Shown one piece after another: positions 8,880-34,059 of a stretch of 64,000 nucleotides of DNA. Position 1 is the stretch's first letter. Each line of letters starts with the position of its first letter. Source of the DNA: Magnetococcales bacterium. GTDB lineage: Bacteria > Pseudomonadota > Magnetococcia > Magnetococcales > UBA8363. A program made the position numbers and the translations under genes. Where the stretch lies: assembly GCA_015228815.1 (NCBI GenBank), contig JADGCV010000006.1, positions 74,495 through 138,494 on the forward strand, given 5' to 3'. The notes below the pieces were generated by a model. The model was not told the DNA's origin, did not search any database, and was given only the letters and a program-made list of their open reading frames with translations.

Positions 8880-11675
8880 TTAACTCCGCATCCGTTCCAG
8901 GCGCCGCAGCGCCTCCTTCATTTCATGGATTTTTTCCTTGAGTTCCCCTTCCTTGGCCCGTTCCTTCGTTACGACCTCGGGGTTTGCCCGCGACAGGAAC
9001 GAAGGGTTGGCCAATTTTTTCTCGACCTGCTCCAAATCCCGTGCCAGTTTCTCCGATCCCTTCAGTAAACGCGCCATTTCCGCATCGACATCCATCAACC
9101 CCGCCAATGGAATGTAAAGACGCAGATCTCCCACGACCCCGGTCGCGTTTTCCCCCTCGGGAACCTCATTCTCCCGCGTCCATCGGTCGATTCGCGCCAA
9201 CACCGAAATGATGCGCTCATGCCGCTTCAAGCGTTGGATGATCGACTCCTCCCCCAGGACCACCAGCGGCAGCCCCTTGCCCGGCGGCAATTCCAGTTCG
9301 GCGCGTATCGTCCGAACCGTCGTCACCACTTCGATCACCCAATCCATTTCCCGCTCGATGGCCTCTTCCTCGGCATCAAGCCCTTCCGCCTCGGGCCACG
9401 AAGCCAACATGATCGAACTCCCGGCACATCCGGCCCTCGAAGCCACCCGCAACCAGAGTTCCTCGGTAATGAACGGCATCAGGGGATGCAACAGGCGCAA
9501 TGACGTTTCCAACACCTCCAGCATGGTCGAACGGGTCATGTCCCGGGTCTCTTCCGCGATCCCATCGCCATACAGGACCGGCTTGACCATCTCCAGGTAC
9601 CAGTCACAATAGACACCCCACAAAAATTGATAGATATGGTGGGCATAATCGTTGAAACGGTACTCCTCGATCGCCCGGCGGACCGCTTCGGTCACCCGTT
9701 TCAACCGCGCCCTGATCCATCGGTCGGGGATGGAGGCAACCCCTGCCACAACCAGGACCCGTTCGCTTCCCTCGTGCGAATTCATCAACACAAACCGGCT
9801 CGCGTTCCACAATTTATTACAAAAATTGCGGTATCCTTCAATCCGGCCAAGATCAAACTTGATGTCCCGTCCCTGGGTCGCGAGACTGGCCATCGTGAAG
9901 CGCAACGCATCGGCGCCGTAGGGAGGAATCCCCCGAGGAAATTCCCGACGGGTCGCCTTTTCGATCCGTTCGGCCAGATGCGGCTGCATCATGTCCCGCG
10001 TCCTCTTGGCCACCAGCGACTCCAGATCGATCCCGTCGATCAGGTCCAGGGGATCCAGAATGTTCCCCTTGGACTTGCTCATCTTGTTGCCCTCCGCATC
10101 GCGGATCAACCCGGTGATGTAGACGTCACGAAAAGGAACCTCTTCGGTAAATTCCAGCCCCATCATGATCATCCGGGCGACCCAGAAAAAAATGATGTCA
10201 AATCCGGTGACCAGGCAGTTGGTCGGGTAGAACGTCTTGAGTTCCTCCGTCGCCCCAGGCCATCCCAGGGTCGAAAACGGCCAGAGCGCCGATGAAAACC
10301 AGGTATCCAACACGTCCGGGTCACGTTCCAGATGCACCGGCGATCCATAGTGTTCCGCCGCCAGTTCATAGACCGTCTCTTCGCAATTGCACACGAACAG
10401 ATGACCATCGGGGCCATACCAGGCGGGAATGCGATGCCCCCACCAGATCTGACGCGATATGCACCAGTCCTGAATGTTGCGCATCCATTCGAAGTAGGTT
10501 TTCTCCCAGTGGGCCGGAACCAGCCGGATCCGCCCCTCCTCCACCGCCGCGATCGCCTTTTGCGCCAACGGCGCCACCCGGACAAACCATTGATCGGTCA
10601 ACAACGGTTCGATCACCGATCGCGACCGGTCCCCCCGGGGAACCATGAGTTCATGCGGTTCCACTTTTTCCAGCAATCCCAGCGATTCCAGATCGGCGAC
10701 CACCCGGCGACGCGCTTCATATCGATCCAGTCCACGATAGACCTCGGGGGCGTTTTCGTTGATCGTGGCATCGGCGGCCAAGACACTGATCACCGGCAAA
10801 TGATGACGTTCACCGATGGCATGGTCGTTGAAATCGTGGCCGGGGGTGATCTTGACGCACCCGGACCCGAATTCGGGATCGACATGGTCATCGGCAATGA
10901 TCGGAATCAGACGACCGGTCAATGGCAACGTCACCATGGCACCGACCAACCCTTTGTAGCGCTCATCCTCCGGATGAACCGCCACCGCCGTATCCCCCAG
11001 CATCGTCTCCGGACGGGTCGTCGCCACCACCAAAAATCCCGAACCATCCGCCAGAGGATAGCGCAAATGCCACAGATGGCCCGCCTCCTTCTCCGACAAC
11101 ACCTCCAGATCCGATACCGCCGTCCGCAACACCGGATCCCAATTGACCAACCTTTTTCCCCGATAGATCAAACCCGCTTCATACAGACGGACAAAAACCT
11201 CGGTAACCGCATGCGACAGCTCCCGATCCATGGTAAACCGTTCGCGGCTCCAGTCGCAGGATGCCCCCAACCGGCGCAGTTGACCGACAATCGTCCCCCC
11301 CGATTGCCCCTTCCACTGCCACACCCGCGCCTCGAAGGCCTCGCGCCCCAGATCATGCCGGCTCTTTCCCTCCGCCTCCAGTTGCCGCTCCACCACCATC
11401 TGGGTGGCAATCCCGGCATGGTCGGTCCCTGGCTGCCACAGCGTCCGGTCCCCCCGCATCCGATGATAACGGGTCAGGGCATCCATGATGGTGTCCTGAA
11501 AAGCATGCCCCATGTGCAGGCTTCCCGTCACGTTCGGTGGCGGAATCATGATGCAATAGGGGGCTCCCCGCCCATTCAGGTCGGGAGTGAAATACCCCCG
11601 CTCCTCCCATATCCGATAAAGCCGCTTCTCGACACCCGAGGGATCATACGTCTTTGAAAGTTCCGATTCCGACAT
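8880..11675 (-). CDS. valS: Valyl-tRNA synthetase
   Basis: The 931-aa protein carries [14 protein letters not shown] (HIGH) and KMSKSKGN (KMSKS). It has the ValS editing domain and a C-terminal coiled coil. Confidence 0.95.
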
Positions 11676-11782
11676 TGCGTTTCAATCCATCCGCTACAGT
11701 GTTCGTTCCATGGAACGTCTTCCCTGAAAAACAACCCCACTTCGTCCCATATCCATCCGTGGCGCCCATCCCCATGCCAGAA

Positions 11783-13861
11783 TCAATCCAGCTCACGGAT
11801 CCGGTCAAGTTCCTCGCGTACAACCTCCTCAATCAGTCCAGGCAACAGGCGTTGCACCATGGATGCGACCATCTCACGCACCAACTCCTCGACCTGGCCA
11901 CCATACAGTTCCTCCAACGACCGGGAAGTCACCGCCTCCGCTCCATCTCCCGCCACACCATCCAAACGAGAAAGAACACTCCATGGTTTTTCTTCTTCTT
12001 TTAAAAGTTTTTCTTCCAGAGGCTCTTCCTCCAGGGATGCTTCTTTTAAAAGTTTCTCTTCCAGAGGTTCCTCCTCAAGGGGTTCTTCCTCAAGGGATTC
12101 TTCTTTTGGAAGTTTCTCTTCCGGCGGTTCTTCCTCCAGGGATGCTTCTTTTAAAAGTTTCTCTTCCGGCGGTTCTTTCTCAAGGGATTTTTCCTCCAGA
12201 GAGTCTTCCTCAAGGGATTCTGCCTCAAGGGATGCTTCTTCTGAAAGTTCTTCTTCAAGAGATTCTTCTTTCAAAAGTTCCTCTTCCAGAGATTCTCCCT
12301 CCAGGGGGGGGGCTTCTAATAGTTTCTTCTCAAGATCCTCATCCGGAAATTCTTCTTTTAGAAGATCCTCCTCCAAGGATTCTTCTTTCAGAGATTCCTC
12401 TTTCAGAGATTCCTCTTTCAGAGATTCCTCTTCCAAGGATTCCTCTTCCAAGGATTCCTCTTCCAAGGGTTTCTCTTCCAAGGATTCCTCTTCCAAGGGT
12501 TCCTCTTCCAGAGATTCCTCTTCCAGAGGTTCCTCTTCCAAGGGTTCCTCTTCCAGAGATTCCTCTTCCAGAGGTTCCTCCTCCAAGGACTCTTCTTCCA
12601 GGGATTCCTCTTCCAGAGGTTCCTCCTCCAAGGACTCTTCTTCCAGGGATTCCTCTTCCAGAGGTTCCTCCTCCAAGGACTCTTCTTCCAGGGATTCCTC
12701 TTCCAGAGGTTTCTCCTCCAAGGATTCTTCTTCCAGAGATTCCTCCTCCAAGGACTCTTCTTTCAGAGATTCCTCTTCCAGAGGTTCCTCCTCCAAGGAC
12801 TCTTCTTTCAGAGATTCCTCTTCCAAGGACTCTTCTTTCAGAGATTCCTCTTCCAGCGGTTCCTCCTCCAAGGATTCTTCTTCTGAAAGTCCTTCTTCAA
12901 GAGATTCCTCTTCAAGAGATTCCTCTTCAAGAGATTCTTCCTCCAGGGATTTTTCTTTTAATAGTTTTTCCTCCAGAGATTCCTCATCCGGGGATTCTTC
13001 CAGAGGGAAAGTATCCTGCTCCGAGGGTTCGGGAATGAAGGTTGCTTCCTTTTCGATCGGGATTTCCGATTTCCCCCCAGGAGGGGTTTCATTTTCTTCT
13101 TCCACATCGAGCGGCGGCGGATTTTCGATGGCGGCGTCAAGGAGTTCCAGATCATCCTCGTCCGCGGCGTCAAGGAGGACGGTCTCCTCCTCACCGACGC
13201 CGATGGCGGATTCATCCTCCTTCGATAATTCTCCGGAAAGGGATGAAAGGTCTTCCCAATCACCGGGTTGCGAAACCAGCTTCACCCCCGGTTCACCGGA
13301 ATCCTCCGCCCCGATCGGTTCCATCAAGAGGTGTTCTTCCCCATCGGTATCCTCATTGGAAAGAAGAGCCATCATTTCGTCATCGATCGCTTCCCGTTCC
13401 ATGGCGGTCATGTCCGGAGCATCCTTGGCCGATTCCATGACCGCGGCGATATTGACCGGGGTGGGAAAATCGATTTCCATTCCGGTCAGGTCGAGAATAT
13501 CATCATCTTCATCCATCACCGGGACCGGGTCGCCGGAAGCGGATTGGGGTATCGCACCCGCTTCGGGATCTTCGGGACCGGAATGGATTGGAGAATCGAC
13601 CTCGGAGGGGGGCGAAGGGGAGACATTCTCCGCGAATTCCTCGCTGTCCAACATGCTCTCCAGTGAATTGAGGACCTCCTCCATGGAAGGGACCGGAGGG
13701 ATGTCGGCGGGAAGAGAATCGGGAATGACGCTCCTGGACTCCGTTGCGGAAGGTTCCAGACTGTCGGCCAGTTCGACCTTTTTCAGGGGGGATTTTTTTC
13801 GGCTCGCGGTCCCCTCGGTTTTCTTGACCGACCTGGGTTTGGTGTCCTTGATGGCGGCCAT
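11783..13861 (-). CDS. Giant acidic repeat protein (692 aa) with PopZ/DUF2497-like N- and C-terminal motifs
   Basis: The central ~340 aa consist almost entirely of E-S-L-E-E / E-P-L-E-E pentapeptides. The N-terminal PSMEEVLNSLESML and C-terminal VEELVREMVASMVQRLLPGLIEEVVREELDRIRE resemble my recollection of Caulobacter PopZ termini. The gene lies immediately upstream of valS. Confidence 0.7.
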   Translation of the reverse strand: MAAIKDTKPRSVKKTEGTASRKKSPLKKVELADSLEPSATESRSVIPDSLPADIPPVPSMEEVLNSLESMLDSEEFAENVSPSPPSEVDSPIHSGPEDPEAGAIPQSASGDPVPVMDEDDDILDLTGMEIDFPTPVNIAAVMESAKDAPDMTAMEREAIDDEMMALLSNEDTDGEEHLLMEPIGAEDSGEPGVKLVSQPGDWEDLSSLSGELSKEDESAIGVGEEETVLLDAADEDDLELLDAAIENPPPLDVEEENETPPGGKSEIPIEKEATFIPEPSEQDTFPLEESPDEESLEEKLLKEKSLEEESLEEESLEEESLEEGLSEEESLEEEPLEEESLKEESLEEESLKEESLEEEPLEEESLKEESLEEESLEEESLEEKPLEEESLEEESLEEEPLEEESLEEESLEEEPLEEESLEEESLEEEPLEEESLEEEPLEEEPLEEESLEEEPLEEESLEEKPLEEESLEEESLEEESLKEESLKEESLKEESLEEDLLKEEFPDEDLEKKLLEAPPLEGESLEEELLKEESLEEELSEEASLEAESLEEDSLEEKSLEKEPPEEKLLKEASLEEEPPEEKLPKEESLEEEPLEEEPLEEKLLKEASLEEEPLEEKLLKEEEKPWSVLSRLDGVAGDGAEAVTSRSLEELYGGQVEELVREMVASMVQRLLPGLIEEVVREELDRIRELD
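11990..12975 (-). repeat. Coding tandem repeat array of 15-nt units (and 30/45-nt higher-order units) encoding (E/K)(S/P)LEE
   Basis: The plus strand shows gattcctcttccaag / gactcttcttccagg / ggttcctcctccaag units repeated dozens of times. The array is in frame with the 11783..13861 ORF. Confidence 0.9.
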
Positions 13862-13937
13862 TTTTCCTCTTTCATCCCACCGGGGGATCGTCTGGAGACC
13901 CGAAATCGTCCTTCACATCGGTCCGATCGGTGATCAA

Positions 13938-15212
13938 TCACCATCCAAAATACAGACGGACGGTATCCATCAAATTGCCAATGAATCCTCCCGAGGGAAG
14001 TTCCCTGGATGCCACAACAGGACGATTGAGCAATTCCTGGCCCTTGAATTTAACGATCACCGAGCCGATCTGCTGTCCCTTTTCCAGTGGGGCGAAGATG
14101 GGATCTTCATAGACCATCCCGACCTCCAGGCTGTTTCTTTCCTTTCTGGGGATGGTCACCACGATCGGCTTGTCCACCGTGGCATCGACGAAGTCCTCCG
14201 CCCCCTTCCAGATGCGAAGGCTGCGAATCAAAGCCCCCGGTTCGTAGACGCGCACGGTTTCGAACATGCGGTTGCCATAACGCAGGAGACGCAGGGCATC
14301 CTCCTCGCGCACCTTGCTGCCCGTCGAACCGAGAATGACGGCGGAAAGCCGCTGTCCCTCCTTCTCGCTGGTGGCGACCAGACAATAACCCGCCTCGCGG
14401 GTATGACCGGTCTTGAGGCCGGTGATGGAAGGGTCCCGCCACAAAAGACGGTTGCGGTTGTACTGCTGGATGCCGCTGAAGGTGTACTGCTTCTCCTTGA
14501 CGAAGTAGCTGTACTCGGGATAGCGGTTCATGATGGCACTTGCAAGTTTGAACAGGTCGCGGGCGCTGGTGTAGTGGTTGGGATCGGGCAATCCGGTAGG
14601 ATTCATGAAGTGGGAGTTGGTCAATCCCAATTCCTTGGCCCTGGCGTTCATCATGTCGATGAACCCCGCCTCCGATCCCCCCAGGTGTTCCGCCACCACG
14701 ACGCAGGCATCGTTGCCGCTCTGCACCGCAATCCCGCGGATCAAATCATCGACCTTGATTTCATCGCCAACCTTGACGAAGGTCTTCGATCCCGCAGTCC
14801 GCCACGCCTTTTCACTGACCGGAAGTTTCTGTTCCAGATTCATGTCCCCTTTCGCCAGGGCCTCGTAGATCAGATACAGCGTCATGATCTTGGTCAGAGA
14901 GGCGGGTGGCACCACCTTGTCGGGGTCCTTCTCGAACATGATCACGCCGGTATCGAGGTCACCAAGAATCGCCGACGTGGCGCGAATGTCGAGTGCGTTG
15001 CGATCGGGTTCGACCGCGGAAGAAGACCAGGGAAGAAGACAGAACGTCAAAAACAGCGTTGACAGTATGATGATTGGCACGACGAAAACCCCTCGGATGC
15101 AAGGGTCCCTGTTGATCGAGGTTTTTCCCTGCCAGGCAGTCCGGGCCTGGCCCCAAACCAGATTGTTTTCGGTGCGCATGGCGATGGCCGGTTTCGAACC
15201 GGTTCCAGCCAT
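13938..15212 (-). CDS. D-alanyl-D-alanine carboxypeptidase (PBP5/6 family)
   Basis: The SxxK (ASLTKIM), SxN (QSGNDA) and KTG (KTGHT) motifs are present. The start is uncertain. A GTG at 15080, preceded by GAGGGG, would give a clean signal peptide (MPIIILSTLFLTFCLLPWSSSA). The gene sits downstream of rlpA, like E. coli rlpA-dacA. Confidence 0.85.
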   Translation of the reverse strand: MAGTGSKPAIAMRTENNLVWGQARTAWQGKTSINRDPCIRGVFVVPIIILSTLFLTFCLLPWSSSAVEPDRNALDIRATSAILGDLDTGVIMFEKDPDKVVPPASLTKIMTLYLIYEALAKGDMNLEQKLPVSEKAWRTAGSKTFVKVGDEIKVDDLIRGIAVQSGNDACVVVAEHLGGSEAGFIDMMNARAKELGLTNSHFMNPTGLPDPNHYTSARDLFKLASAIMNRYPEYSYFVKEKQYTFSGIQQYNRNRLLWRDPSITGLKTGHTREAGYCLVATSEKEGQRLSAVILGSTGSKVREEDALRLLRYGNRMFETVRVYEPGALIRSLRIWKGAEDFVDATVDKPIVVTIPRKERNSLEVGMVYEDPIFAPLEKGQQIGSVIVKFKGQELLNRPVVASRELPSGGFIGNLMDTVRLYFGW

Positions 15213-15228
15213 TGACCGCGTGGCCGTA

Positions 15229-16104
15229 TCATTCGGAAACGATCCTGGATTTTTTCAAACCAAGGTTGGACAGTCGGGCCAGCATGACATCGGCGCCAAG
15301 CGGAGAGGGAAACGGACCCACCAAAACCCTGAAATAGCTGTCGCCATTCTTGGTACCCGCACGAACATGGGTCTTTCCGGTCGATTGTATCCGGTTGGCG
15401 AGACTTGCCGCGTTTTCACGCGAACGAAAGGCGCCAACCTGGACAAAGAAGGTATGCTCTGAATCCCGACGTTTATTTTGGACCTTTCCGGTTTCGTTAT
15501 GCAAGTCCTGTTGGTTCTTTTGTTCTGTTTTTAACCGGTTGGCAAAGAGGCGCCGCCGATTTTGACTGTAGGGATGATCACTCGGCAGGGGATCGGCGAA
15601 GCCCAGAGCCTCGATGCGCACCTTTGCCGTCCCCTTGTCGAGAAACTGCAATTCCCGGGCAGCCGACTTGGAAAGGTCGATGATCCGGTCGCCGATGAAC
15701 GGACCACGATCGTTGACCCGGATGGTGGTCCAACGACCGTTGTCCAGGTTCGTCACCCGGACCGTCATGGGAAGGGGCAGGGTCTTGTGCGCCCCGGTCA
15801 TGCCGTACATGTCGAAAAATTCACCATTGGCGGTATCTTCTCCATGAAAATTGGGACCATACCAGGAAGCAATCCCCTCGGCGACAAAATTTTCCGCATC
15901 GTCCCGGGACATCGGAAAGTAGGTCCGACCGTTGATCGTATAGGGATTGCCGGTCTTGACATGATCAAGATTCTTTTGTTTCGCCGGAGCGGGAGGTTCA
16001 AGCTCGGAGACATCCTCCCGAGGCAAACTCTGACACCCCGCGATCAGCAGGCAGCACACCACCGTCACAATCCGGGTCCAATCGAAGGAATACTTGTTTG
16101 TCAT
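15229..16104 (-). CDS. rlpA: Septal ring lytic transglycosylase RlpA-family lipoprotein (DPBB domain plus C-terminal SPOR)
   Basis: A lipobox is present (LLIAGC). The DPBB core reads GIASWYGPNFHGEDTANGEFFD...AHKTLPLPMTVRVTNLDNGR...VNDRGPF. The C-terminal SPOR reads FFVQVGAFRSRENA. Confidence 0.85.
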   Translation of the reverse strand: MTNKYSFDWTRIVTVVCCLLIAGCQSLPREDVSELEPPAPAKQKNLDHVKTGNPYTINGRTYFPMSRDDAENFVAEGIASWYGPNFHGEDTANGEFFDMYGMTGAHKTLPLPMTVRVTNLDNGRWTTIRVNDRGPFIGDRIIDLSKSAARELQFLDKGTAKVRIEALGFADPLPSDHPYSQNRRRLFANRLKTEQKNQQDLHNETGKVQNKRRDSEHTFFVQVGAFRSRENAASLANRIQSTGKTHVRAGTKNGDSYFRVLVGPFPSPLGADVMLARLSNLGLKKSRIVSE

Positions 16105-16567
16105 CGTGCATCCTCTTCAAGGCCATCGGTCCGTCGAATTCCCGTGACTTTCGGGGCGACCACCCATGTGCCGCATGGAAATTAAAGCACTTTTGAAAAT
16201 TATAGCAAGTCAAAGCAAATTTTGTTCCAAAAAAAGATCCATCACCACGCCTTCATGATCGATCGCTCTCGGAAAACCCGTGGGTATTGCAATTTAAACA
16301 TAATTATTTCATTATCTTATATAAAGCATACGCACACCTTGGGACTGGATTGCCCCATCCTTCGGAAAAAATACGCCCACTGGCATCCCTTGCCAGAAAC
16401 CCCATTCCAAGTTCATCCTCGCCTATGGATTCCGCAGTGTCGCGCGGAGATGGTGTCAATTCTCTAACATGGATGCCGCGGTCATTGAAAGGAGAATGGC
16501 GCATCACGATGGTCACCGTCGCCCCTTTCCAAGGCCCCGTGCCAACCCCTTGACCGACCTCGAAGGC

Positions 16568-18391
16568 ATGACCTGGAACGATAAAACCCAAGAATGGCGT
16601 CGCCGGCTGCGCCACGTCCTCCCCCATGCGCACCAGCACCGGGGGGCCTTTGCCGTCGGATTCATTCTTCTGGCGCTGACCAATCTGAGCGCCGCCGCCA
16701 TCCCCTATCTTCTGAAGCGGACCACCGAAACCCTGACCGCCACACCCGACCCCGGAGCCATCGCCCCGTTTGCCCTGGGCCTGATTGTTCTGGCGCTCTT
16801 CAACGCGACCATCCGGGTTCGGGCCAGGACCCATATTTTCGGCATTGGCCGCGCGGTGGAATTTGCGCTGCGGCAACGCTACCATGCCCATCTTCTCGAA
16901 CTCGATGCCCTCTTTTTCGACAAGGAAAAAACCGGTGACCTTGTCGCCCGCGGCAACAACGACATCACCTCCATCCGCATGTTCATCGGCCCTGGATTTC
17001 TCCAGGTTTCCAACACATTCATGGTCTATGCCATCACCCTCCCCGTCATGATCGGCCTCGATCCCTCCCTGACGATCCTGGTGCTCGCCCCCTTTCCCAT
17101 CGTTCTCGGTGGCGCCAGGATCCTGACACGCCGTCTCTACCGCCTCAGCCGCAAGGTTGCCGACCGTTTCGGGGCATTGTCGGGTTTTGTCCAGGAATCG
17201 ATCACCGGCATCCCGGTCATCCGTACCCATGCCCGGGAAGAGGACTGGCGCCGCCGTTTCGCCGACGAAACCCGGGAACTCTACGAAGCCAACGTGCATC
17301 ATACCCGGCTGCAAAGCCTGTTTGCCCCTCTGACCATGCTCAGTGGCGGCATCGGCGCCGTTCTTCTCTTGGGTTTTGGCGGCCAGGAGGTGGCGGCGGG
17401 CCGGTTGACGGTCGGAGATTTCGTTGCCTTTTCGGGATACCTGGCCATTTTGATCTGGCCCACGGTCGGTTTCGGCTGGATCCTGACCGTGCTGCAACGG
17501 GGATTGGCCGCCCTGGAACGGGTGGGACGGATCCTCGACACCCAACCCTTCCGGACCGACGCGCCTCAAGCCCCTCCCCTCGCGCAACGCCTCGGAGGAG
17601 ACATCACGGTCAAACACCTGACCTTCGCCTTCGGTAACGGACCACCGGTCCTGAAAGACATCGATCTGTTCATTCCACAGGGTGGATTTTTCGGCCTGGT
17701 GGGTCGGATCGGCTCGGGCAAGAGCGCCCTGTTGTCGTGTCTGGCGCGCCTCTATCCTGTCGCCGACGGGTGCATCCGGATTGGCGGACACGACCTGATG
17801 TCCCTGGGCGAGGCCGATCTTCGCGCAACCGTGGCCATGACACCGCAGGAAAGTTTTCTCTTCGCCACCTCCCTAAGGGAAAACCTCGATCCGGGAAATC
17901 GTGGCTTGTCCGACGATGAACTCCGGGCGGCCCTGAAAATGGTGGCGCTGGAGGATGAAGTGGCCCGGTTTCCCCAGGGCATCGACAGCCTCCTGGGCGA
18001 ACGGGGGATCACCCTTTCGGGAGGCCAGCGCCAGAGGGTCGCTCTTGCGCGCTCGCTTCTGGCGCACCCGGCGATTCTACTCCTGGACGATGTCTTTTCC
18101 AGCGTCGATGCCCGCACCGAGGAACGGATCCTCGAAAACCTCAGGGAATGCGCCAAAACGCAGACCCTCCTCATGGTCTGCCACCGGGTGGCGGCCCTGC
18201 ACCATGCCGACCGCATCATTCTTCTGGAAGCGGGACGCATCCAGGGGATCGGCAATCATGCCGAACTCATGAAAGCAAACCCCATCTACAGAGACCTGCA
18301 CCAGAAGATGGAACTCAAGGAAGCCCTGCGGACGATGGCCGATGGATTTCCAGCCCCTGCCGCGCCTTCCATGGAACAGATCATCCCATGA
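16568..18391 (+). CDS. ABC transporter, fused permease/ATPase (exporter type, MdlA-like half of a heterodimer)
   Basis: A six-TM N-terminal domain is followed by Walker A GRIGSGKSAL, signature LSGGQRQR and Walker B LLLDD. The start is uncertain; ATGs at 16469, 16496 and 16568 are all possible. Confidence 0.85.
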   Translation: MTWNDKTQEWRRRLRHVLPHAHQHRGAFAVGFILLALTNLSAAAIPYLLKRTTETLTATPDPGAIAPFALGLIVLALFNATIRVRARTHIFGIGRAVEFALRQRYHAHLLELDALFFDKEKTGDLVARGNNDITSIRMFIGPGFLQVSNTFMVYAITLPVMIGLDPSLTILVLAPFPIVLGGARILTRRLYRLSRKVADRFGALSGFVQESITGIPVIRTHAREEDWRRRFADETRELYEANVHHTRLQSLFAPLTMLSGGIGAVLLLGFGGQEVAAGRLTVGDFVAFSGYLAILIWPTVGFGWILTVLQRGLAALERVGRILDTQPFRTDAPQAPPLAQRLGGDITVKHLTFAFGNGPPVLKDIDLFIPQGGFFGLVGRIGSGKSALLSCLARLYPVADGCIRIGGHDLMSLGEADLRATVAMTPQESFLFATSLRENLDPGNRGLSDDELRAALKMVALEDEVARFPQGIDSLLGERGITLSGGQRQRVALARSLLAHPAILLLDDVFSSVDARTEERILENLRECAKTQTLLMVCHRVAALHHADRIILLEAGRIQGIGNHAELMKANPIYRDLHQKMELKEALRTMADGFPAPAAPSMEQIIP

Positions 18392-28995: not shown

Positions 28996-31900
28996 ATGCA
29001 ACAACTGCCCCCCGCCATTCCCATTGTCTTGGTTGATATTGAAAATTTCAGTCAATGGAACCAGGACGAGCAGGCCAAAATCATTGACCGTTTACAGACA
29101 GGACTCAGGGAAAGCCTGAAACCCTTGATCGGGTACGCCAACCCCGACACGATCATCAACCGCCACGGCGCTGGGGACGGTTATTATTTGTTTCTTCAAA
29201 GTTTTTCAACCCCGGTTGCCATGCGGGTAGCCTTGAATCTGGAAAACTTTCTGCTCCAAGACAACCAGAAGCATCCCCGCTATCCCCTGCGCCTGCGGGT
29301 GGTATTGACTTTGGGAAGTGTCGGACTCAAGGGGGACCAATATCTGGGAGAGGCGTTGACCGAGGCGGCACGGCTCATCGATCATGATTGGATCAGGAAG
29401 ATATTGAAAACCCGCAAGGAAAGTCCCGTTGTCCTGGCAACCTCGAACTTTTTTTGGGACGATTGGCATCCTCATCCCCAGCGCACCGCTCCAGAGTTGA
29501 CCTTTCCAGAAGAGCGCCCCTGGATCGCGGTTGAATTATCCGTCAAACATGGCCGCCTCATCGGTGCCCATGTGCAGGTCGAGCCAACAACCTTTTTTCC
29601 AATCGCCCAACAACAAACCATTCAGGAAAAACCGGTAGAAACCTCTGCCTGCGATCTGACCCCCTGGCTCAAATCACTGCATGACGAAACCCGGTATCTC
29701 ACAATCAGCGGCATCGGCTCCGGCGGAGGCCGGGGCAAAACAGCCAATCTTTACCCGATTGAAGATCTTTATACGGTCATCAAGTGCCATGACATAGTCA
29801 TCAACGCACGGCAATCAACGATGGAACGGATGGGGGGGCAAGAGACGCGCGGTAAAAAGGTCAACCTGGCGGAACTGTTGCCACGACACAAAAGATTGTT
29901 GATCGAGGGACAGCCGGGATCGGGGAAGACCACGTTTTTAAAACTGACCGCCGCCATGCTCGCCAGGGATATTCTGGGAAATGAACCCTGCCCGGGCGGA
30001 GGGACCTGGCGCAAACGCCATCTGGGCCTGGATGACCGCTTGGAATCGCCGATTCCGTTGTTTTTGCGGCTTTCGGAACTGGCCAGGCTATTGTCCGACA
30101 GGCCCCCCCCAAAAATGGCGGACGACCGTTTTCGGCTGTTGGATCTTCTCCAGACCACCCGGGACGCGGGCCGGGAGGCAACATGGCGGGACTATTGGCA
30201 AACCTTGCTGGAAGAAGGCCGGGTCCTGCTGCTGTTGGATGGACTGGATGAAGTCGCGGATGATCGCTTGCGTGAGCGGGTGTTCGCCATTTTTCAAAGT
30301 GCGGTAACCCACTGGAAAAAAAATACCATCATTGTCAGCAGCCGTCCCATTGAAGCGGAGCGGTTGGAACAGATGGGATTTCAACGGACGGTGATCGAAC
30401 CTTTTGGCATCGCTCAAACACAGGAGTTTATCGACCATTGGTCGGCAGCCCTGTATGGCCAAGCCATCGGCGTCCCTGGCGGTGCGGCGGAACAACATGC
30501 CGAAATCCTGGTTCAGGCCATTCTCGCCAAACATTCCATCCGCAAGTTGGCGGCCAATCCGGTCATGTTGACCTGTTTGTGCGTGGTTCATTGGAACGAA
30601 GGCCAATTGCCCGAAGGAAGGGCGCGGGTCTACAGGGCGGTGATCCGCTGGTTGTTGGGCGCCAAGGATGAGGTGCGCGCCGACTTCAACAGGAATGAAC
30701 AAGAACGCTATACCACCCGGTTCGCCCATGAATCTTTTGCCGCCATTGCCCTGGCCATGATGGGCGGTCGTCAAGGGAGGAAAAAAGCCATTTTCGACCT
30801 TGAGGAGGCCGCCAAGGCTGTAATGCCCCTTCATGAACGTCATTTTCCGGACGTCACTACGGACCGGCTTGTTTCAATACGAAAATGGATCCAATTCGAG
30901 TGCATTTACAGCGGCATTCTGGAAGAGATGGGGCGGAACCGCCTCCGATTTTGGCATTTGACCTTTCAAGAGTATCTGGCGGCGCAAAACTTGGCGTGGA
31001 TGAGCGATGACAAGGAGAGCGGATGGTGGCCTCTTGTCGAAGGCCGTTTGGAAGACCCCCATTGGCGGGAAACGATCGATCTGTTTCCCGGCGTTCTTTT
31101 CGATGAGGGTGGTAGCCAGCGCCCGGATGAATTATTGACACGGGTAGTAGCCAAATGGCGTACCTCCACTTGGTCCGATCCATTTCTGAAACTGGTCCCG
31201 GGCAAAAGACACAACAACGGCTTGGCGGAGGCCGCTCACAAGGCTGGCCTCCTGGTGCGAATCCTGGAGCCGATGAAGGTATATCAATACCAACCCAGCC
31301 CCGAGATCCAGAAAGAATACCGGCAGGTGCGCAACCAAGCCCTGAACCTTTTCACCCTGGAAGGTGCGGCCAAGGTGCCGATCAAGGTACGCCTGGCAGC
31401 GGCGGAAGCGTTGGGCCAGGGGGGCGACCCGCGCCTGACCGAGGACAAGTGGCGAGAAAATCTTATCAAAGTGCCTGGAACCGACATTTGCCTGGGGAAA
31501 TACCCGGTGACAGTGCAGGAATACCAACGCTTTGTCGAAGATGGTGGCTACGACAACCCCGATTATTGGCAGGAGGATCACGCCTGGACCTTTCGGCAAG
31601 CGCATGACTGGAAGGAACCAGATCAATGGGCACAACAATTGGACCATGGCAATCGCCCCGTCGTGAGGGTCTCCTGGTATGAAGCCAGAGCTTATTGTCT
31701 TTGGCTGACCCGGCAAAAGTCGGACGTAACAAGGGATATCCGTTTTTTCCTCCCCAATGAAGATGATTGGGAGAGGGCGGCCACCCCCACCCATGGTGAT
31801 TACCCCTGGGGCACGGAAAACCCGACACCGGAATTGGCCAATTATAGCGACGGCAAGATCGGCGCCCCCACCCCGGTGGGACTCTACCCCGCAGGCAACA

Positions 31901-32154
31901 GTTCCCTGGGCCATTGCGACTTGGCCGGCAACGTCTGGGAGTGGTGCTCCACTCCTGGATCGAAGAAAGACGCTATCGAGGAAGATGCAGTGAAATACGG
32001 ACCACCGAAGGTAGTTCGGGGCGGGTCCTGGGGCTTCCCAGCTTCCGACCTCCAGGTCGGCGGCAGAGGCGGTCGCATCGACGGTCGTGCGGGCTACCGC
32101 GGCGCCGGTCTGGGCTTTCGCCTCGCCGCCCCCGCCAGCACGCTTGATCCTTGA
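28996..32154 (+). CDS. STAND/NLR-like protein: class III cyclase-like domain + NACHT NTPase + HEAT-like repeat + FGE-sulfatase (SUMF1/CLec) domain, 1052 aa
   Basis: AAGGA lies 6 nt upstream of the ATG.
- aa 8-130: LVDIENFSQW, GAGDGYYLF, LRLRVVLTLGSVGLKGDQYLGEALTEAARL (cyclase homology-like)
- aa 305-312: GQPGSGKT (Walker A)
- aa 410-419: VLLLLDGLDE (Walker B), with IVSSRP
- aa ~797-813: KVRLAAAEALGQGGDPR (HEAT-like)
- aa ~825-1047: RVSWYEARAYCLWL, GNVWEWC, RGGSW (FGE-sulfatase). Confidence 0.85.
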   Translation: MQQLPPAIPIVLVDIENFSQWNQDEQAKIIDRLQTGLRESLKPLIGYANPDTIINRHGAGDGYYLFLQSFSTPVAMRVALNLENFLLQDNQKHPRYPLRLRVVLTLGSVGLKGDQYLGEALTEAARLIDHDWIRKILKTRKESPVVLATSNFFWDDWHPHPQRTAPELTFPEERPWIAVELSVKHGRLIGAHVQVEPTTFFPIAQQQTIQEKPVETSACDLTPWLKSLHDETRYLTISGIGSGGGRGKTANLYPIEDLYTVIKCHDIVINARQSTMERMGGQETRGKKVNLAELLPRHKRLLIEGQPGSGKTTFLKLTAAMLARDILGNEPCPGGGTWRKRHLGLDDRLESPIPLFLRLSELARLLSDRPPPKMADDRFRLLDLLQTTRDAGREATWRDYWQTLLEEGRVLLLLDGLDEVADDRLRERVFAIFQSAVTHWKKNTIIVSSRPIEAERLEQMGFQRTVIEPFGIAQTQEFIDHWSAALYGQAIGVPGGAAEQHAEILVQAILAKHSIRKLAANPVMLTCLCVVHWNEGQLPEGRARVYRAVIRWLLGAKDEVRADFNRNEQERYTTRFAHESFAAIALAMMGGRQGRKKAIFDLEEAAKAVMPLHERHFPDVTTDRLVSIRKWIQFECIYSGILEEMGRNRLRFWHLTFQEYLAAQNLAWMSDDKESGWWPLVEGRLEDPHWRETIDLFPGVLFDEGGSQRPDELLTRVVAKWRTSTWSDPFLKLVPGKRHNNGLAEAAHKAGLLVRILEPMKVYQYQPSPEIQKEYRQVRNQALNLFTLEGAAKVPIKVRLAAAEALGQGGDPRLTEDKWRENLIKVPGTDICLGKYPVTVQEYQRFVEDGGYDNPDYWQEDHAWTFRQAHDWKEPDQWAQQLDHGNRPVVRVSWYEARAYCLWLTRQKSDVTRDIRFFLPNEDDWERAATPTHGDYPWGTENPTPELANYSDGKIGAPTPVGLYPAGNSSLGHCDLAGNVWEWCSTPGSKKDAIEEDAVKYGPPKVVRGGSWGFPASDLQVGGRGGRIDGRAGYRGAGLGFRLAAPASTLDP
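32017..32154 (+). repeat. VR-like 3' cassette of the NACHT gene (left arm of the inverted repeat), including a GC-only 12-mer and the stop
   Basis: The stretch from cgg ggc ggg tcc tgg to gcc gcc ccc gcc agc acg ctt gat cct tga aligns with the 3' end of the TIR gene (32587-32715, opposite strand). The final 48 nt differ at 2 positions. Confidence 0.85.
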
Positions 32155-32203
32155 TTTTTTGGGTTTTGGTCCTTGATGGGGTCCAGGGGGCGATGATGAC
32201 TTT

Positions 32204-32410
32204 GTCACTTTGAACCGCTTCCTTTCCGAAGCGGCCATCGTTCTTGGCAAATCCCCCCGGCAGTTGGGCTACCGGATCAAGAACGGCGCACTTTGAGCGC
32301 ACAAAAACAAGGGCTTCTGGGTCATCGTCAACACCGACCTGCCCCTTTTCGAAGTTTGGAAACACGATACCCTTTTGCCCGCCCCCGGATTTCGAATTCC
32401 AAAAAAGTAG
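32204..32410 (+). pseudogene. Remnant of a small excisionase/AlpA-type (HTH_17-like) DNA-binding gene with an in-frame TGA
   Basis: The frame reads (V)TLNRFLSEAAIVLGKSPRQLGYRIKNGAL*AHKNKGFWVIVNTDLPLFEVWKH...KK*. The stop at 32294-96 interrupts the expected helix-turn-helix plus wing. No convincing start or RBS is visible. Confidence 0.35.
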
Positions 32411-32586
32411 GCTGTCCCCGAACTCCAAAGTGACATTTTGTCAGTTTGTCACTGTCACATGGACATCATGACCGTTATTAGTGACAAAGATGGACCAATA
32501 ACGACCATTTTTGTCACTTTAAACGACAAGAATGGTCGTTCTATTGTCATTTCACGCAACCATTGGGCTGCGACCCATGGACCCCA

Positions 32587-32715
32587 TCAAGGATTAAGCG
32601 TGCTGGCGGGGGCGGCAAGGCGAAAGCCCAGACTGACGCCGCAGCCGCCCGCAGGAGCGTCGCCGCGGAAGCCGACCCGGAGGTAGGAAGCCGGGCGGAA
32701 CCAAGACCCGCCCCT
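32587..32715 (-). repeat. VR-like 3' cassette of the TIR gene (right arm of the inverted repeat)
   Basis: The stretch from agg ggc ggg tct tgg to gcc gcc ccc gcc agc acg ctt aat cct tga aligns with 43 codons of the NACHT gene cassette. See the findings for the mismatch pattern. Confidence 0.85.
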
Positions 32716-34059
32716 GATAGAGCGAACATCTGCATTGCCACGCTTGACCACGGGGTCCTTGACCATCGTTCCATCGGCCCGTTTTTTATACACCTGATTA
32801 TCCCAGACATCCCGGCACCATTCCCAAACATTTCCTGCCAAGTCCAAATGGCCGAAGGGACCTGCGCCCGCCGGATACCGTCCGACCAAGGCTGGTTTTC
32901 CATTGCCGTAGTCCAAACCAAAACAGGCCAATTCCTTCGTGGGGTCGTCGTCTCCCCAGGGATGGCGGCATCCCTCCGGTCCCCGAGCGGCATACTCCCA
33001 TTGCGCTTCCGAAGGGAGAAAGAATTCCTTTCCGGACTTTTTGGAAAGCCACTCACAAAAAGCGACGGCATCTTGCCAAGCCACACCGACAACCGGCTGC
33101 TGCGGATCGGAATATTTTTGATCGCGCCAATAGAACGGTTCCCTATATTTCGTCTCCAGGATGAAAATCCCATAGTGCTGGTTCGTCACCGGCGTTTCCG
33201 CCAGCCCAAAAGGTGAAAGTTCCACCCGATGTTCCGGTTTTTCAAAATCCCTTCCCTGGTTGTCTCCCATCGTAAAGATTCCCCCCGGCACCGGAAGCAA
33301 TCGCAGCCCCGGCAGGGGTTCAAGAATTTTTTGTTTTGTGGTTTTTACCTTTCTGGTTTTAGGAGTCCCTGCTTTGCTGTCGATGACATAAATTCTCTCT
33401 GGGACGCCTGCGGCTACAGAATTTTTTTCCGAAACGCCCGACATCGCTTCTTTGCCTAAGGTCTTCCCGGCTTCGGTTCCCGGCGCCAAAGGTAAGGAAC
33501 GCCTTTCGGCGATCAATTCGCGGATCCGGTTCGACAAATTGAGAAAAACCTCTTGTTTCCCAATTTCATTCATGTGTCCCAGTGTTCGTGTTGGTGAAGC
33601 AAACCCTTGAATCTTGGTCAATATTTTTGTTTTATCATTGACTGCGACCTGAGAAGGGCTCACAAAGACAGGAAGAAGGGTCAGCTTTTTTTTCTCGAAA
33701 GCTCTCAATAGCCACGGCAATTCCGTCTCAGCGACAAATTTGGAAGCAAGAAAGGGCTGAGAGATAAAAAGCACCGCCACGGAAGCTTCCTCCATGGCCG
33801 CAACAATTTCTTTTTCCCAAACCGCTCCCTCTGTGATCTTCCCGTCATACCAACACTGAACCCCCTCTTCCCCCTTCAACGTCTCAATATACGGCCAAAA
33901 AAGTTCCAAACAGCTGACGTCTTTATGACTGTAACTGATGAAGACCGCAGGTTTTGACACGCTTCTGGCACCCAAAGACATCATCCTTTCAATAACCAGT
34001 CGTAGAATCCTGTCGGCTCTAACATCAATACCAAGAAGGTTCAAAAGGCCAACGATCAT
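32587..34059 (-). CDS. TIR domain + FGE-sulfatase (SUMF1/CLec) domain protein, 490 aa
   Basis: aa ~38-130 read AVFISYSHKD...CWYDGKITEGAVWEKEI...ASVAVLFISQPFLASKFVAETEL (TIR_2-like). aa ~262-485 read PGGIFTMGDNQG, VVGVAWQDAVAFCEWL, GNVWEWC, RGGSWF (FGE-sulfatase). GGAG lies 3 nt upstream of the ATG at 34059; alternative ATGs are at 33984/33981. Confidence 0.85.
   Translation of the reverse strand: MIVGLLNLLGIDVRADRILRLVIERMMSLGARSVSKPAVFISYSHKDVSCLELFWPYIETLKGEEGVQCWYDGKITEGAVWEKEIVAAMEEASVAVLFISQPFLASKFVAETELPWLLRAFEKKKLTLLPVFVSPSQVAVNDKTKILTKIQGFASPTRTLGHMNEIGKQEVFLNLSNRIRELIAERRSLPLAPGTEAGKTLGKEAMSGVSEKNSVAAGVPERIYVIDSKAGTPKTRKVKTTKQKILEPLPGLRLLPVPGGIFTMGDNQGRDFEKPEHRVELSPFGLAETPVTNQHYGIFILETKYREPFYWRDQKYSDPQQPVVGVAWQDAVAFCEWLSKKSGKEFFLPSEAQWEYAARGPEGCRHPWGDDDPTKELACFGLDYGNGKPALVGRYPAGAGPFGHLDLAGNVWEWCRDVWDNQVYKKRADGTMVKDPVVKRGNADVRSIRGGSWFRPASYLRVGFRGDAPAGGCGVSLGFRLAAPASTLNP

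Follow-up and report, generated by a model that had tools for sequence, protein, structure and literature searches.

Two genes with a common 3′ cassette

The window analyzed here, a 64 kb stretch from the metagenome-assembled genome (MAG) of a magnetotactic Magnetococcales bacterium, contains two convergent genes whose 3′ ends carry the variable regions (VRs) of a diversity-generating retroelement (DGR), and from which the DGR machinery itself has been lost. Gene A (28996–32154, plus strand) codes for a 1052-residue cyclase-like/NACHT/FGE protein, and gene B (32587–34059, minus strand) for a 490-residue TIR/FGE protein; their stop codons are separated by 432 bp. Both are annotated at NCBI, as MBF0108312.1 and MBF0108313.1, on a 144,449-bp contig, and Pfam searches identify the flanking genes as housekeeping functions (the pyruvate dehydrogenase complex, leuA, and RNase E/G). 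The C-termini of the two proteins correspond to VR-A (32017–32154, plus strand; 46 codons including the stop, from RGGSW to LGFRLAAPASTLDP) and VR-B (32587–32715, minus strand; 43 codons including the stop, from RGGSW to LGFRLAAPASTLNP).

The two cassettes have several features in common. First, each is the 3′ end of an open reading frame (ORF) and lies inside the FGE fold, with the PF03781 match reaching residue 1044 of 1052 in A and residue 482 of 490 in B. Second, similarity between the two genes begins abruptly at the RGGSW codons, as stated in a preliminary description made from the sequence alone: in a protein-guided codon alignment of both FGE domains, scored in 15-codon windows, nucleotide identity is 0.33–0.69 upstream and 0.76–0.91 from RGGSW onward. 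The inverted repeat of about 130 nt reported there is also evident, with arms at 32100–32155 and 32586–32641 (56 nt, 93% complementary) and at 32170–32192 and 32571–32593 (23 nt, 91%), and BLASTN aligns the two cassettes over 138 nt with 78% identity (E=2e-25). Third, the 43 aligned codons contain 22 mismatches, exactly the earlier count, and these fall 10, 9 and 3 on codon positions 1, 2 and 3, as against 77, 57 and 119 in the 173 aligned codons of the FGE domain upstream (Fisher p=0.003); third-position identity is 93% within the cassette and 31% upstream of it. Fourth, VR-A contains three additional codons, again as described before. This extra block of 9 nt (AGA GGC GGT; 32065–32073, plus strand, its exact placement being ambiguous) is present relative to VR-B and to all of the relatives, and it looks as if the G-x-R unit before it had been duplicated in tandem (GGC GGC AGA followed by GGC GGT CGC); a length change of this kind cannot be a product of templated homing. 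Finally, the last 48 nt are identical at 45 positions, not at 46 as first claimed, and include a GC-only 12-mer, GCCGCCCCCGCC (32125–32136 on the plus strand in VR-A, with its counterpart at 32605–32616 on the minus strand in VR-B), that had been likened to an initiation of mutagenic homing (IMH) element. This likeness is borne out, in that the 12-mer is kept in A, in B, and in the VRs and template repeats (TRs) of all relatives, and TR/VR homology in intact relatives stops a few bases beyond it (VRs continue AGCACG and TRs AACACG).

Intact relatives of the locus

A Logan contig (L003) contains a 57%-identical relative of gene A, downstream of which come a GC hairpin, nine copies of the TTTGTCA motif, an ORF of 226 codons and a bAvd gene, at which point the contig ends. 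Through the 226-residue protein we reached complete cassettes in L007 and L008 (assemblies GCA_002753515.1 and GCA_015232815.1) and in L012 (JGI 3300021055). These have the order target, spacer of about 25 nt, hairpin, TTTGTCA array, helix-turn-helix (HTH) gene, Avd, TR, reverse transcriptase (RT), array, hairpin, spacer, and a second, convergent FGE target. The RTs of the family carry the DGR-typical motif IGNLTSQ together with YMDD, and bAvd was found in L003, in L012, and in the more distant L011.

Comparison of VRs with their own TRs displays the expected mutational pattern. In L012, 16 and 13 of the 19 TR adenines are changed in VR1 and VR2, respectively, while other sites differ at 1 of 89 positions in each, and mismatches between VR1 and VR2 fall 3, 9 and 2 on codon positions 1, 2 and 3. 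The corresponding values for L007 are 11 and 9 of 21 adenines, and 9 and 6 of 90 other sites. The Avd gene of L007 is interrupted (at approximately 10930–11080) by an inverted-repeat element, AAACCGCA...CCCCGCGAAAGCGGGGATCC...TGCGGTTTAA, resembling a miniature inverted-repeat transposable element (MITE), with a second copy at approximately 12670–12820, downstream of the RT. The interruption of Avd fits with the higher non-adenine mismatch between VR and TR in L007 (7–10%) than in L012 (1%).

The hairpins following the VRs of intact relatives have stems of 9–14 bp. Those of L007 fold at −16.5 and −14.2 kcal/mol (z=−6.0 and −5.5) and that of L003 at −12.0 kcal/mol (z=−3.4), and both hairpins of L012 are perfect by eye (GGTCCAGGGGGC-TT-GCCCCCTGG).

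Variable sites coincide with template adenines

The homologous TRs of L007 and L012 were used for adenine tests, there being no cognate TR at the gene A/B locus. Up to where the GC stretch ends, a span of 111 nt, VR-A and VR-B differ at 21 sites, of which 14 correspond to adenines in the L007 TR (21 adenines; p=3.9e-8); against the L012 TR, 12 of 20 differing sites correspond to adenines (p=1.3e-6). We also compared five cassettes with the same scaffold, namely A, B, and three from the Magnetococcales DCbin4 MAG (L001 and L002). Columns with three or more nucleotides number 14 of 21 at L007-TR adenines and 4 of 90 elsewhere (odds ratio 43, p=1.3e-9), and they fall 7, 10 and 1 on codon positions 1, 2 and 3. 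At five of the sites where A and B differ, the change is a transition and neither the L007 nor the L012 TR has an adenine; among them is CTC/CTT, a B-private change located 3 nt 5′ of the GC 12-mer.

The FGE/CLec context, the bias toward codon positions 1 and 2, and the coincidence of variable columns with adenines of homologous TRs thus identify the cassettes as DGR variable regions, as the preliminary description had suspected. Since the variable columns coincide with TR adenines, drift is ruled out, and there is no need to invoke gene conversion and selection. We regard it as extremely unlikely that no retroelement was involved and that gene conversion between the inverted paralogues homogenized their 3′ ends, with positive selection then acting on ligand-binding residues: gene conversion could occur between inverted repeats that lie 430 nt apart, and diversifying selection commonly acts on the binding sites of immune sensors, but such a history leaves unexplained why variable columns fall at the TR adenines of intact DGRs (p=1e-9 to 4e-8), why remnants of a DGR cassette lie exactly between A and B, and why the IMH-like tail, spacer and hairpin are held in common with bona fide VRs.

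Remnants of a DGR between genes A and B

The preliminary description reported no RT, Avd or TR in the window, and this has been confirmed. A six-frame scan of the 64 kb for YxDD and [ILV]GxxxSQ motifs found no RT, and TBLASTN with two RTs of the family gave best E-values of 0.03–0.05, which we consider noise; no Avd was found in the 64 kb with L003 bAvd as the TBLASTN query (best E=0.026, at an unrelated site); and BLASTN of the 64 kb at word size 7 with both cassettes returned only the A/B pair, with no third copy that might be a TR.

The region between the two stop codons nonetheless retains recognizable pieces of a cassette. Immediately downstream of VR-A is a 22 nt spacer (32155–32176, plus strand), running from the stop codon to the hairpin position. 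It was initially viewed as an insertion into A between CCTTGA repeats, an interpretation we reject because alignment with relatives points to a deletion in B: the spacer is common to A, L003, and both VR1 and VR2 of L007, and is thus ancestral, kept in A and lost from B. Next is the left arm of the post-VR hairpin of A, TGGGGTCCAGGGGGCG (32177–32192, plus strand), the right (3′) arm of which has been lost. The counterpart following gene B is a hairpin decayed by point mutations, GGTCCATGGGTC-GCA-GCCCAATGG (32560–32583, minus strand), the bulged structure noted in the preliminary description. It is better seen as a degraded remnant of the 9–14 bp GC hairpin conserved in relatives, and we reject it as a functional hairpin in that its fold (−7.0 kcal/mol) is no more stable than those of shuffled sequences (z=−0.88). 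The fold at A is weaker still (−2.2 kcal/mol, z=+0.64), such that neither target is now followed by a stable GC hairpin shortly downstream of the VR, and the remnants are recognizable by alignment.

Beyond the hairpin arm of A is a pseudogene stub of the HTH_17-type accessory gene (32210–32350, plus strand; about 47 codons), translated as LNRFLSEAAIVLGKSPRQLGYRIKNGAL, an in-frame TGA at 32294–32296, and AHKNKGFWVIVNTDLPLF. By homology it corresponds to residues 1–47 of the HTH protein, with 28–31 of 47 residues identical to family members; TBLASTN with the L003 HTH protein matches 32210–32365 (E=1.7e-14, 58% identity), the BLASTN partner in L007 is 9993–10139, and homology stops near 32350. 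A 7-bp palindrome, GCGCACTTTGAGCGCAC, at 32286–32302 spans the in-frame TGA and is terminator-like on the minus strand, although such palindromes are no more frequent than in shuffled sequence. The stub gives way to a deletion junction (32351–32427) at which, from the BLASTN coordinates and the annotation of L007, the counterpart of L007 10140–12555 is absent; these approximately 2.4 kb comprise the remainder of the HTH gene, Avd, the TR, and the RT. Homology resumes with a 24 nt RT-flank remnant (32428–32451, plus strand), 96% identical to L007 12556–12579, a segment directly 3′ of the RT stop codon. Finally, a remnant TTTGTCA(Y) array with six TTGTCA cores extends across 32201–32550, the cores being present at 13.9 per kb between A and B and at 0.33 per kb elsewhere in the window, an approximately 40-fold difference.

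Of the options offered by the preliminary description, the evidence favors that of a relic or of an orphan or remote target, and the HTH stub and the RT-flank sequence still lie between the targets. It is very unlikely that an Avd-TR-RT segment still resides between A and B, in the genome or in part of the population, and has been collapsed in the MAG consensus. DGR loci do often coincide with contig breaks (L003, L009 and L010 each stop at or close to their cassettes), and structural variants with intact RT and TR have been observed at degenerate loci by Doré 2024 (PMC10907252), but the contig here is unbroken over 64 kb with housekeeping flanks, the HTH stub is diverged and has an in-frame stop, and the loss of a hairpin arm, the loss of a spacer, and point decay are independent lesions that no assembler would make.

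Broken relatives

RT-less convergent target pairs recur in Magnetococcales. They include DCbin4 (L001/L002), where the hairpin is also broken, and L004, where one hairpin survives. In a Magnetococcales MAG represented by L004, L005 and L006, the interval 10001–17181 contains a NACHT-FGE gene, a HicB-like gene, and a convergent Trypsin-NACHT-FGE gene plus Trypco1, with no RT; the VR is common to both genes from RGGSW onward, and a GTCCAGGGGC-GTA-GCCCCTGG hairpin is kept after one target only. In DCbin4, the ends of contigs PEAN01000031 and PEAN01000065 (L001 5080–5192 and L002 1738–1827) are mutually reverse-complementary, and therefore the contigs abut and form one RT-less cluster with three FGE targets (one NACHT-FGE and two TIR-FGE). 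Around the protein P0004, the contigs of DCbin4 and of GCA_015234015.1 both break at a convergent TIR-FGE target, and the 10 kb upstream contain no RT.

Duplicate assemblies (L007 with L008, and L004 with L005 and L006) have identical DNA over 18–23 kb and hence provide no information on activity.

A second DGR in the genome and the fate of the locus

The genome is not devoid of DGRs. Looking for an RT elsewhere in the genome, as the preliminary description had suggested, yielded an intact-looking RT with an HTH protein and a target on another contig, assigned by accessions. This second DGR lies on a 119,678-bp contig and includes the target P0002 (MBF0108653), the HTH protein P0125 (MBF0108654; HQL76_05725) and the RT P0132 (MBF0108657), in which IGNLTSQ and YMDD are both intact. 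Its accessions follow MBF0108312/MBF0108313 by about 345 and its locus-tag index is 1145, accession contiguity that places both loci in one MAG. The A/B locus is not a recent intragenomic copy of this HQL76 cassette, a possibility we considered and rejected because the HTH stub matches P0125 at 28 of 47 residues, no closer than it does other members (29–31 of 47).

We consider it probable that the A/B locus is a degenerate DGR locus of which two targets are left, their VRs most likely frozen, in a genome that retains a complete paralogous DGR elsewhere. The ancestral order would have been target A, GC hairpin, TTTGTCA array, HTH gene, Avd, TR, RT, array, GC hairpin, and convergent target B. 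The RT would have misread adenines of the TR RNA, with the cDNA replacing the last 110–130 nt or so of each target, such that both C-terminal CLec/FGE ligand-binding surfaces were rewritten; AAC-type codons would be randomized while non-adenine sites, third codon positions included, remained as in the TR, which would generate the cassette pattern that is observed. A deletion of about 2.4 kb would then have taken most of the HTH gene plus Avd, TR and RT, after which the cis hairpins for homing presumably decayed at both targets, B lost its 22 nt spacer, and A gained its 9 nt duplication. It is this loss of the machinery, together with the decay of the hairpins, the spacer loss and the duplication, that suggests that the VRs are frozen and that homing at the locus has ended, leaving A (cyclase-like/NACHT) and B (TIR) with what would be sensor domains of fixed specificity.

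Alternatively, VR-A and/or VR-B could be remote targets that have lost their local cassette and are still rewritten in trans by the complete DGR of the same MAG, which we consider possible though somewhat unlikely. There are precedents for remote or degenerate loci being served in this way (PMC10907252, PMC5758913), with Doré 2024 inferring that DGR4/5 of PB-PSB1 are served by DGR2. The VR protein of P0002, RGGSWFDPASGLRVGLRYVSLAGGRGGVLGFRLAAPASLGS, contains all of the invariant scaffold residues common to A and B except for a B-private Arg-to-Cys change (CGC to TGC), the third-position identity of A and B is very high, and VR-A shares CTGGGCTTTCGCCTCGCCGCCCCCGCC, its 27 nt adenine-free 3′ end, without any change with two P0002-type cassettes of DCbin4. 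When genome contigs were scanned for this adenine-free end, only the DCbin4 MAG matched, and both matches were VRs with no TR; a metagenome scan with a relaxed pattern of it gave no matches. Trans diversification was judged by Doré 2024 (PMC10907252) by a perfect match at non-adenine sites, and Wu et al. 2018 (PMC5758913) accepted remote targets, located over 100 kb away from the RT-TR, if they differ from the TR at adenines only. Several observations weigh against service in trans. A and B differ by the five transitions at sites where homologous TRs lack adenine, plus the 9 nt indel, and the C-to-T change private to B is at a site, 3 nt away from the GC 12-mer, that any homing should overwrite. 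Moreover, the post-VR hairpins have decayed at both A and B, and the tails past the GC stretch read STLDP and STLNP before the stop at A and B, as against SLGS in P0002.

Some considerations do weigh against a frozen, degenerate locus. A and B differ at only 3 of 43 third positions, whereas VR1 and VR2 of L007 differ at 8 of 43 although L007 keeps its RT, and from this low third-position drift the last homing at A/B may have been fairly recent, or homing may be continuing. The intact-looking DGR of the same MAG has in P0002 a target with an identical VR scaffold (PAS-x-LRVG-x-R...AG-x-R-xxx-LGFRLAAPAS), and rewriting of A and B in trans is mechanistically possible. The need for a hairpin in homing is experimentally established for BPP-1 only, where a GC-rich hairpin 4–34 bp downstream of the VR is required (PMC3240598). 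With the cognate TR gone, adenine-only differences can be judged solely against the TRs of related genomes.

With respect to the suggestion in the preliminary description that the genes form a programmable-recognition module, the DGR-diversified origin of the sensors holds, whereas current programmability was overstated, as the decayed hairpins, the likely non-adenine transitions and the 9 nt indel suggest that both cassettes are static.

An accessory HTH protein and TTTGTCA arrays

A protein of about 220 residues is encoded between the target and Avd in each of four relatives (L003 12215–12895, L007 10001–10666, L012 1801–2466, and L011 191–844). The head of this protein matches HTH_17, weakly in a Magnetococcales copy (E=0.005) and strongly in L011 (E=8e-9), a distant member that is again followed by bAvd. 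An AlphaFold2 (AF2) model (pLDDT 73.5) consists of a Xis/BldC-like head and a C-terminal four-helix bundle, for which the best structural matches are weak, Avd being among them (8ub7_B, 4dwl). A profile search with the family recovers 751 cluster representatives at E<=1e-3. PADLOC has no model for either the HTH protein or Avd. Wu et al. 2018 (PMC5758913) list four DGR accessory classes (Avd, HRDC, MSL and CH1) and do not mention an HTH protein, and no description of such a module was found in the two DGR papers searched.

The TTTGTCA(C/T) arrays, of 6–10 motifs, are on both sides of the DGR core, between the VR hairpin and the cassette. They are located at 9790–10000 and 12530–12945 in L007, at 11982–12215 in L003, and at approximately 1640–1800 and 4190–4330 in L012, at a density of 14–38 per kb over a background of 0.3–1 per kb. 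The arrays are plausible binding sites for the HTH accessory protein. One further, decidedly doubtful scenario is that one complete DGR per Magnetococcales genome serves several loci, including the cassette-less A/B pair, aided by the HTH module, which would bind the TTTGTCA arrays beside every VR hairpin to recruit or regulate the RT-Avd-TR RNA complex at targets. Cultured Magnetococcales are unicellular cocci. If that scenario were true, the NACHT and TIR sensors of the window would be programmable in trans although the lineage is unicellular in culture, which would go against the proposed tie of this class of DGR to multicellularity.

Products of genes A and B

The gene A product (P0001, a 100% match) has a NACHT domain at residues 394–483 (E=3.9e-10; Walker A GQPGSGKTT), an overlapping NPHP3_N match at 299–450, and an FGE-sulfatase domain at 833–1044. 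The N-terminal 250 residues (28996–29745, plus strand) have no Pfam match, and are predicted to adopt a class III cyclase-like fold. The AF2 model of this segment has a pLDDT of 82, and its top Foldseek matches in the PDB are catalytic domains of adenylyl and guanylyl cyclases (E=1.6e-8), with target-normalized TM-scores of 0.71–0.77 and one uridylyl cyclase among the matches. D14, G60-D61-G62 and R101 are invariant in the domain, and the Asp and Arg are as expected for a cyclase active site. The protein therefore has the NACHT/STAND layout, with an N-terminal cyclase-like fold, a central NACHT P-loop NTPase and a C-terminal FGE domain, and, judging from the model, may be a cyclase-NACHT-CLec protein that signals via a nucleotide second messenger. 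No PADLOC model matches gene A. The gene belongs to a large family, with 388 matches, of the general layout X-NACHT-FGE, where X is a metallophosphatase, TIR, SIR2, DUF4062, ParA or other domain.

The gene B product contains TIR_2 (residues 39–135) and FGE-sulfatase/CLec (255–482) domains but no NACHT, and its TIR domain matches PADLOC TIR models, ThsB-like (E=1.8e-10) as well as SAVED-TIR. On domain logic and the literature, both proteins would act as immune sensors.

Relationship to known systems

DGRs that diversify the CLec domains of NACHT/STAND proteins, some with TIR domains and usually with two targets per locus, have been described by Doré 2024 (PMC10907252), together with degenerate loci whose machinery is missing or pseudogenized and which have been degraded by deletions and MITE insertions. 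The A/B locus resembles these in having two targets that each have one C-terminal CLec/FGE domain, a central NACHT, N-terminal effectors that include TIR, and the co-occurrence of complete and degenerate loci in one genome. It differs in its Magnetococcales host, in the complete loss of the machinery and the decay of the cis hairpins, in the absence of NACHT from B and the cyclase-like N-terminus of A, and in belonging to a cassette family with an HTH_17-type gene and TTTGTCA arrays. Magnetococcales are absent from the text and supplements of Doré 2024, and none of the papers searched paired Magnetococc* with DGR.

Three other systems are informative. In common with the prototype BPP-1 DGR (mtd/avd/TR/brt), VRs are at the 3′ end of genes with a CLec fold, adenine mutagenesis acts on AAC codons, and a GC-only stretch ends the TR/VR homology; in contrast to BPP-1, the A/B locus is chromosomal, its targets, unlike a phage tail fiber, are intracellular proteins of several domains, the RT, Avd and TR are gone and the hairpins broken, and the hairpins of intact relatives have a 3 nt loop and a 9–14 bp stem. 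Remote targets such as the TvpA paralogues of Treponema denticola and the Lineage 4 DGRs likewise have FGE-sulfatase-type VRs, but unlike the remote targets of Wu 2018 the A/B locus holds the wreck of its own cassette, which makes it a target once served in cis and not a dispersed copy of a target. Lastly, gene A shares the effector-NTPase-sensor logic of bNACHT/Avs proteins, and the TIR of gene B matches the ThsB and SAVED-TIR models in the manner of Thoeris ThsB-like TIRs; the sensor of gene A, however, is of the DGR-type CLec/FGE class and not of TPR or LRR-like repeats, and its defense role is putative.

The novelty suggested by the preliminary description was thus overstated, as Doré 2024 (PMC10907252) had already published antigen sensors of the NACHT/TIR-CLec type diversified by DGRs, along with degenerate loci and remote targets served in trans. 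No new category is opened, the concept of programmable sensors and both degenerate and remote loci being already in the literature. What the locus provides is a clean and datable case of DGR death, in which enzyme and template have been excised, the receptor genes are intact, and the cis signals for homing then rot. It extends DGR-diversified antigen sensors resembling nucleotide-binding leucine-rich repeat (NLR) proteins to the Magnetococcales, in which there are MAGs with complete loci (L007, L012, HQL75, HQL65 and HQL76) as well as RT-less loci (the window, DCbin4 and L004). Together, these complete and RT-less loci offer a natural setting in which to ask at what point such sensors require continued diversification, and whether many loci can be served by one complete DGR.

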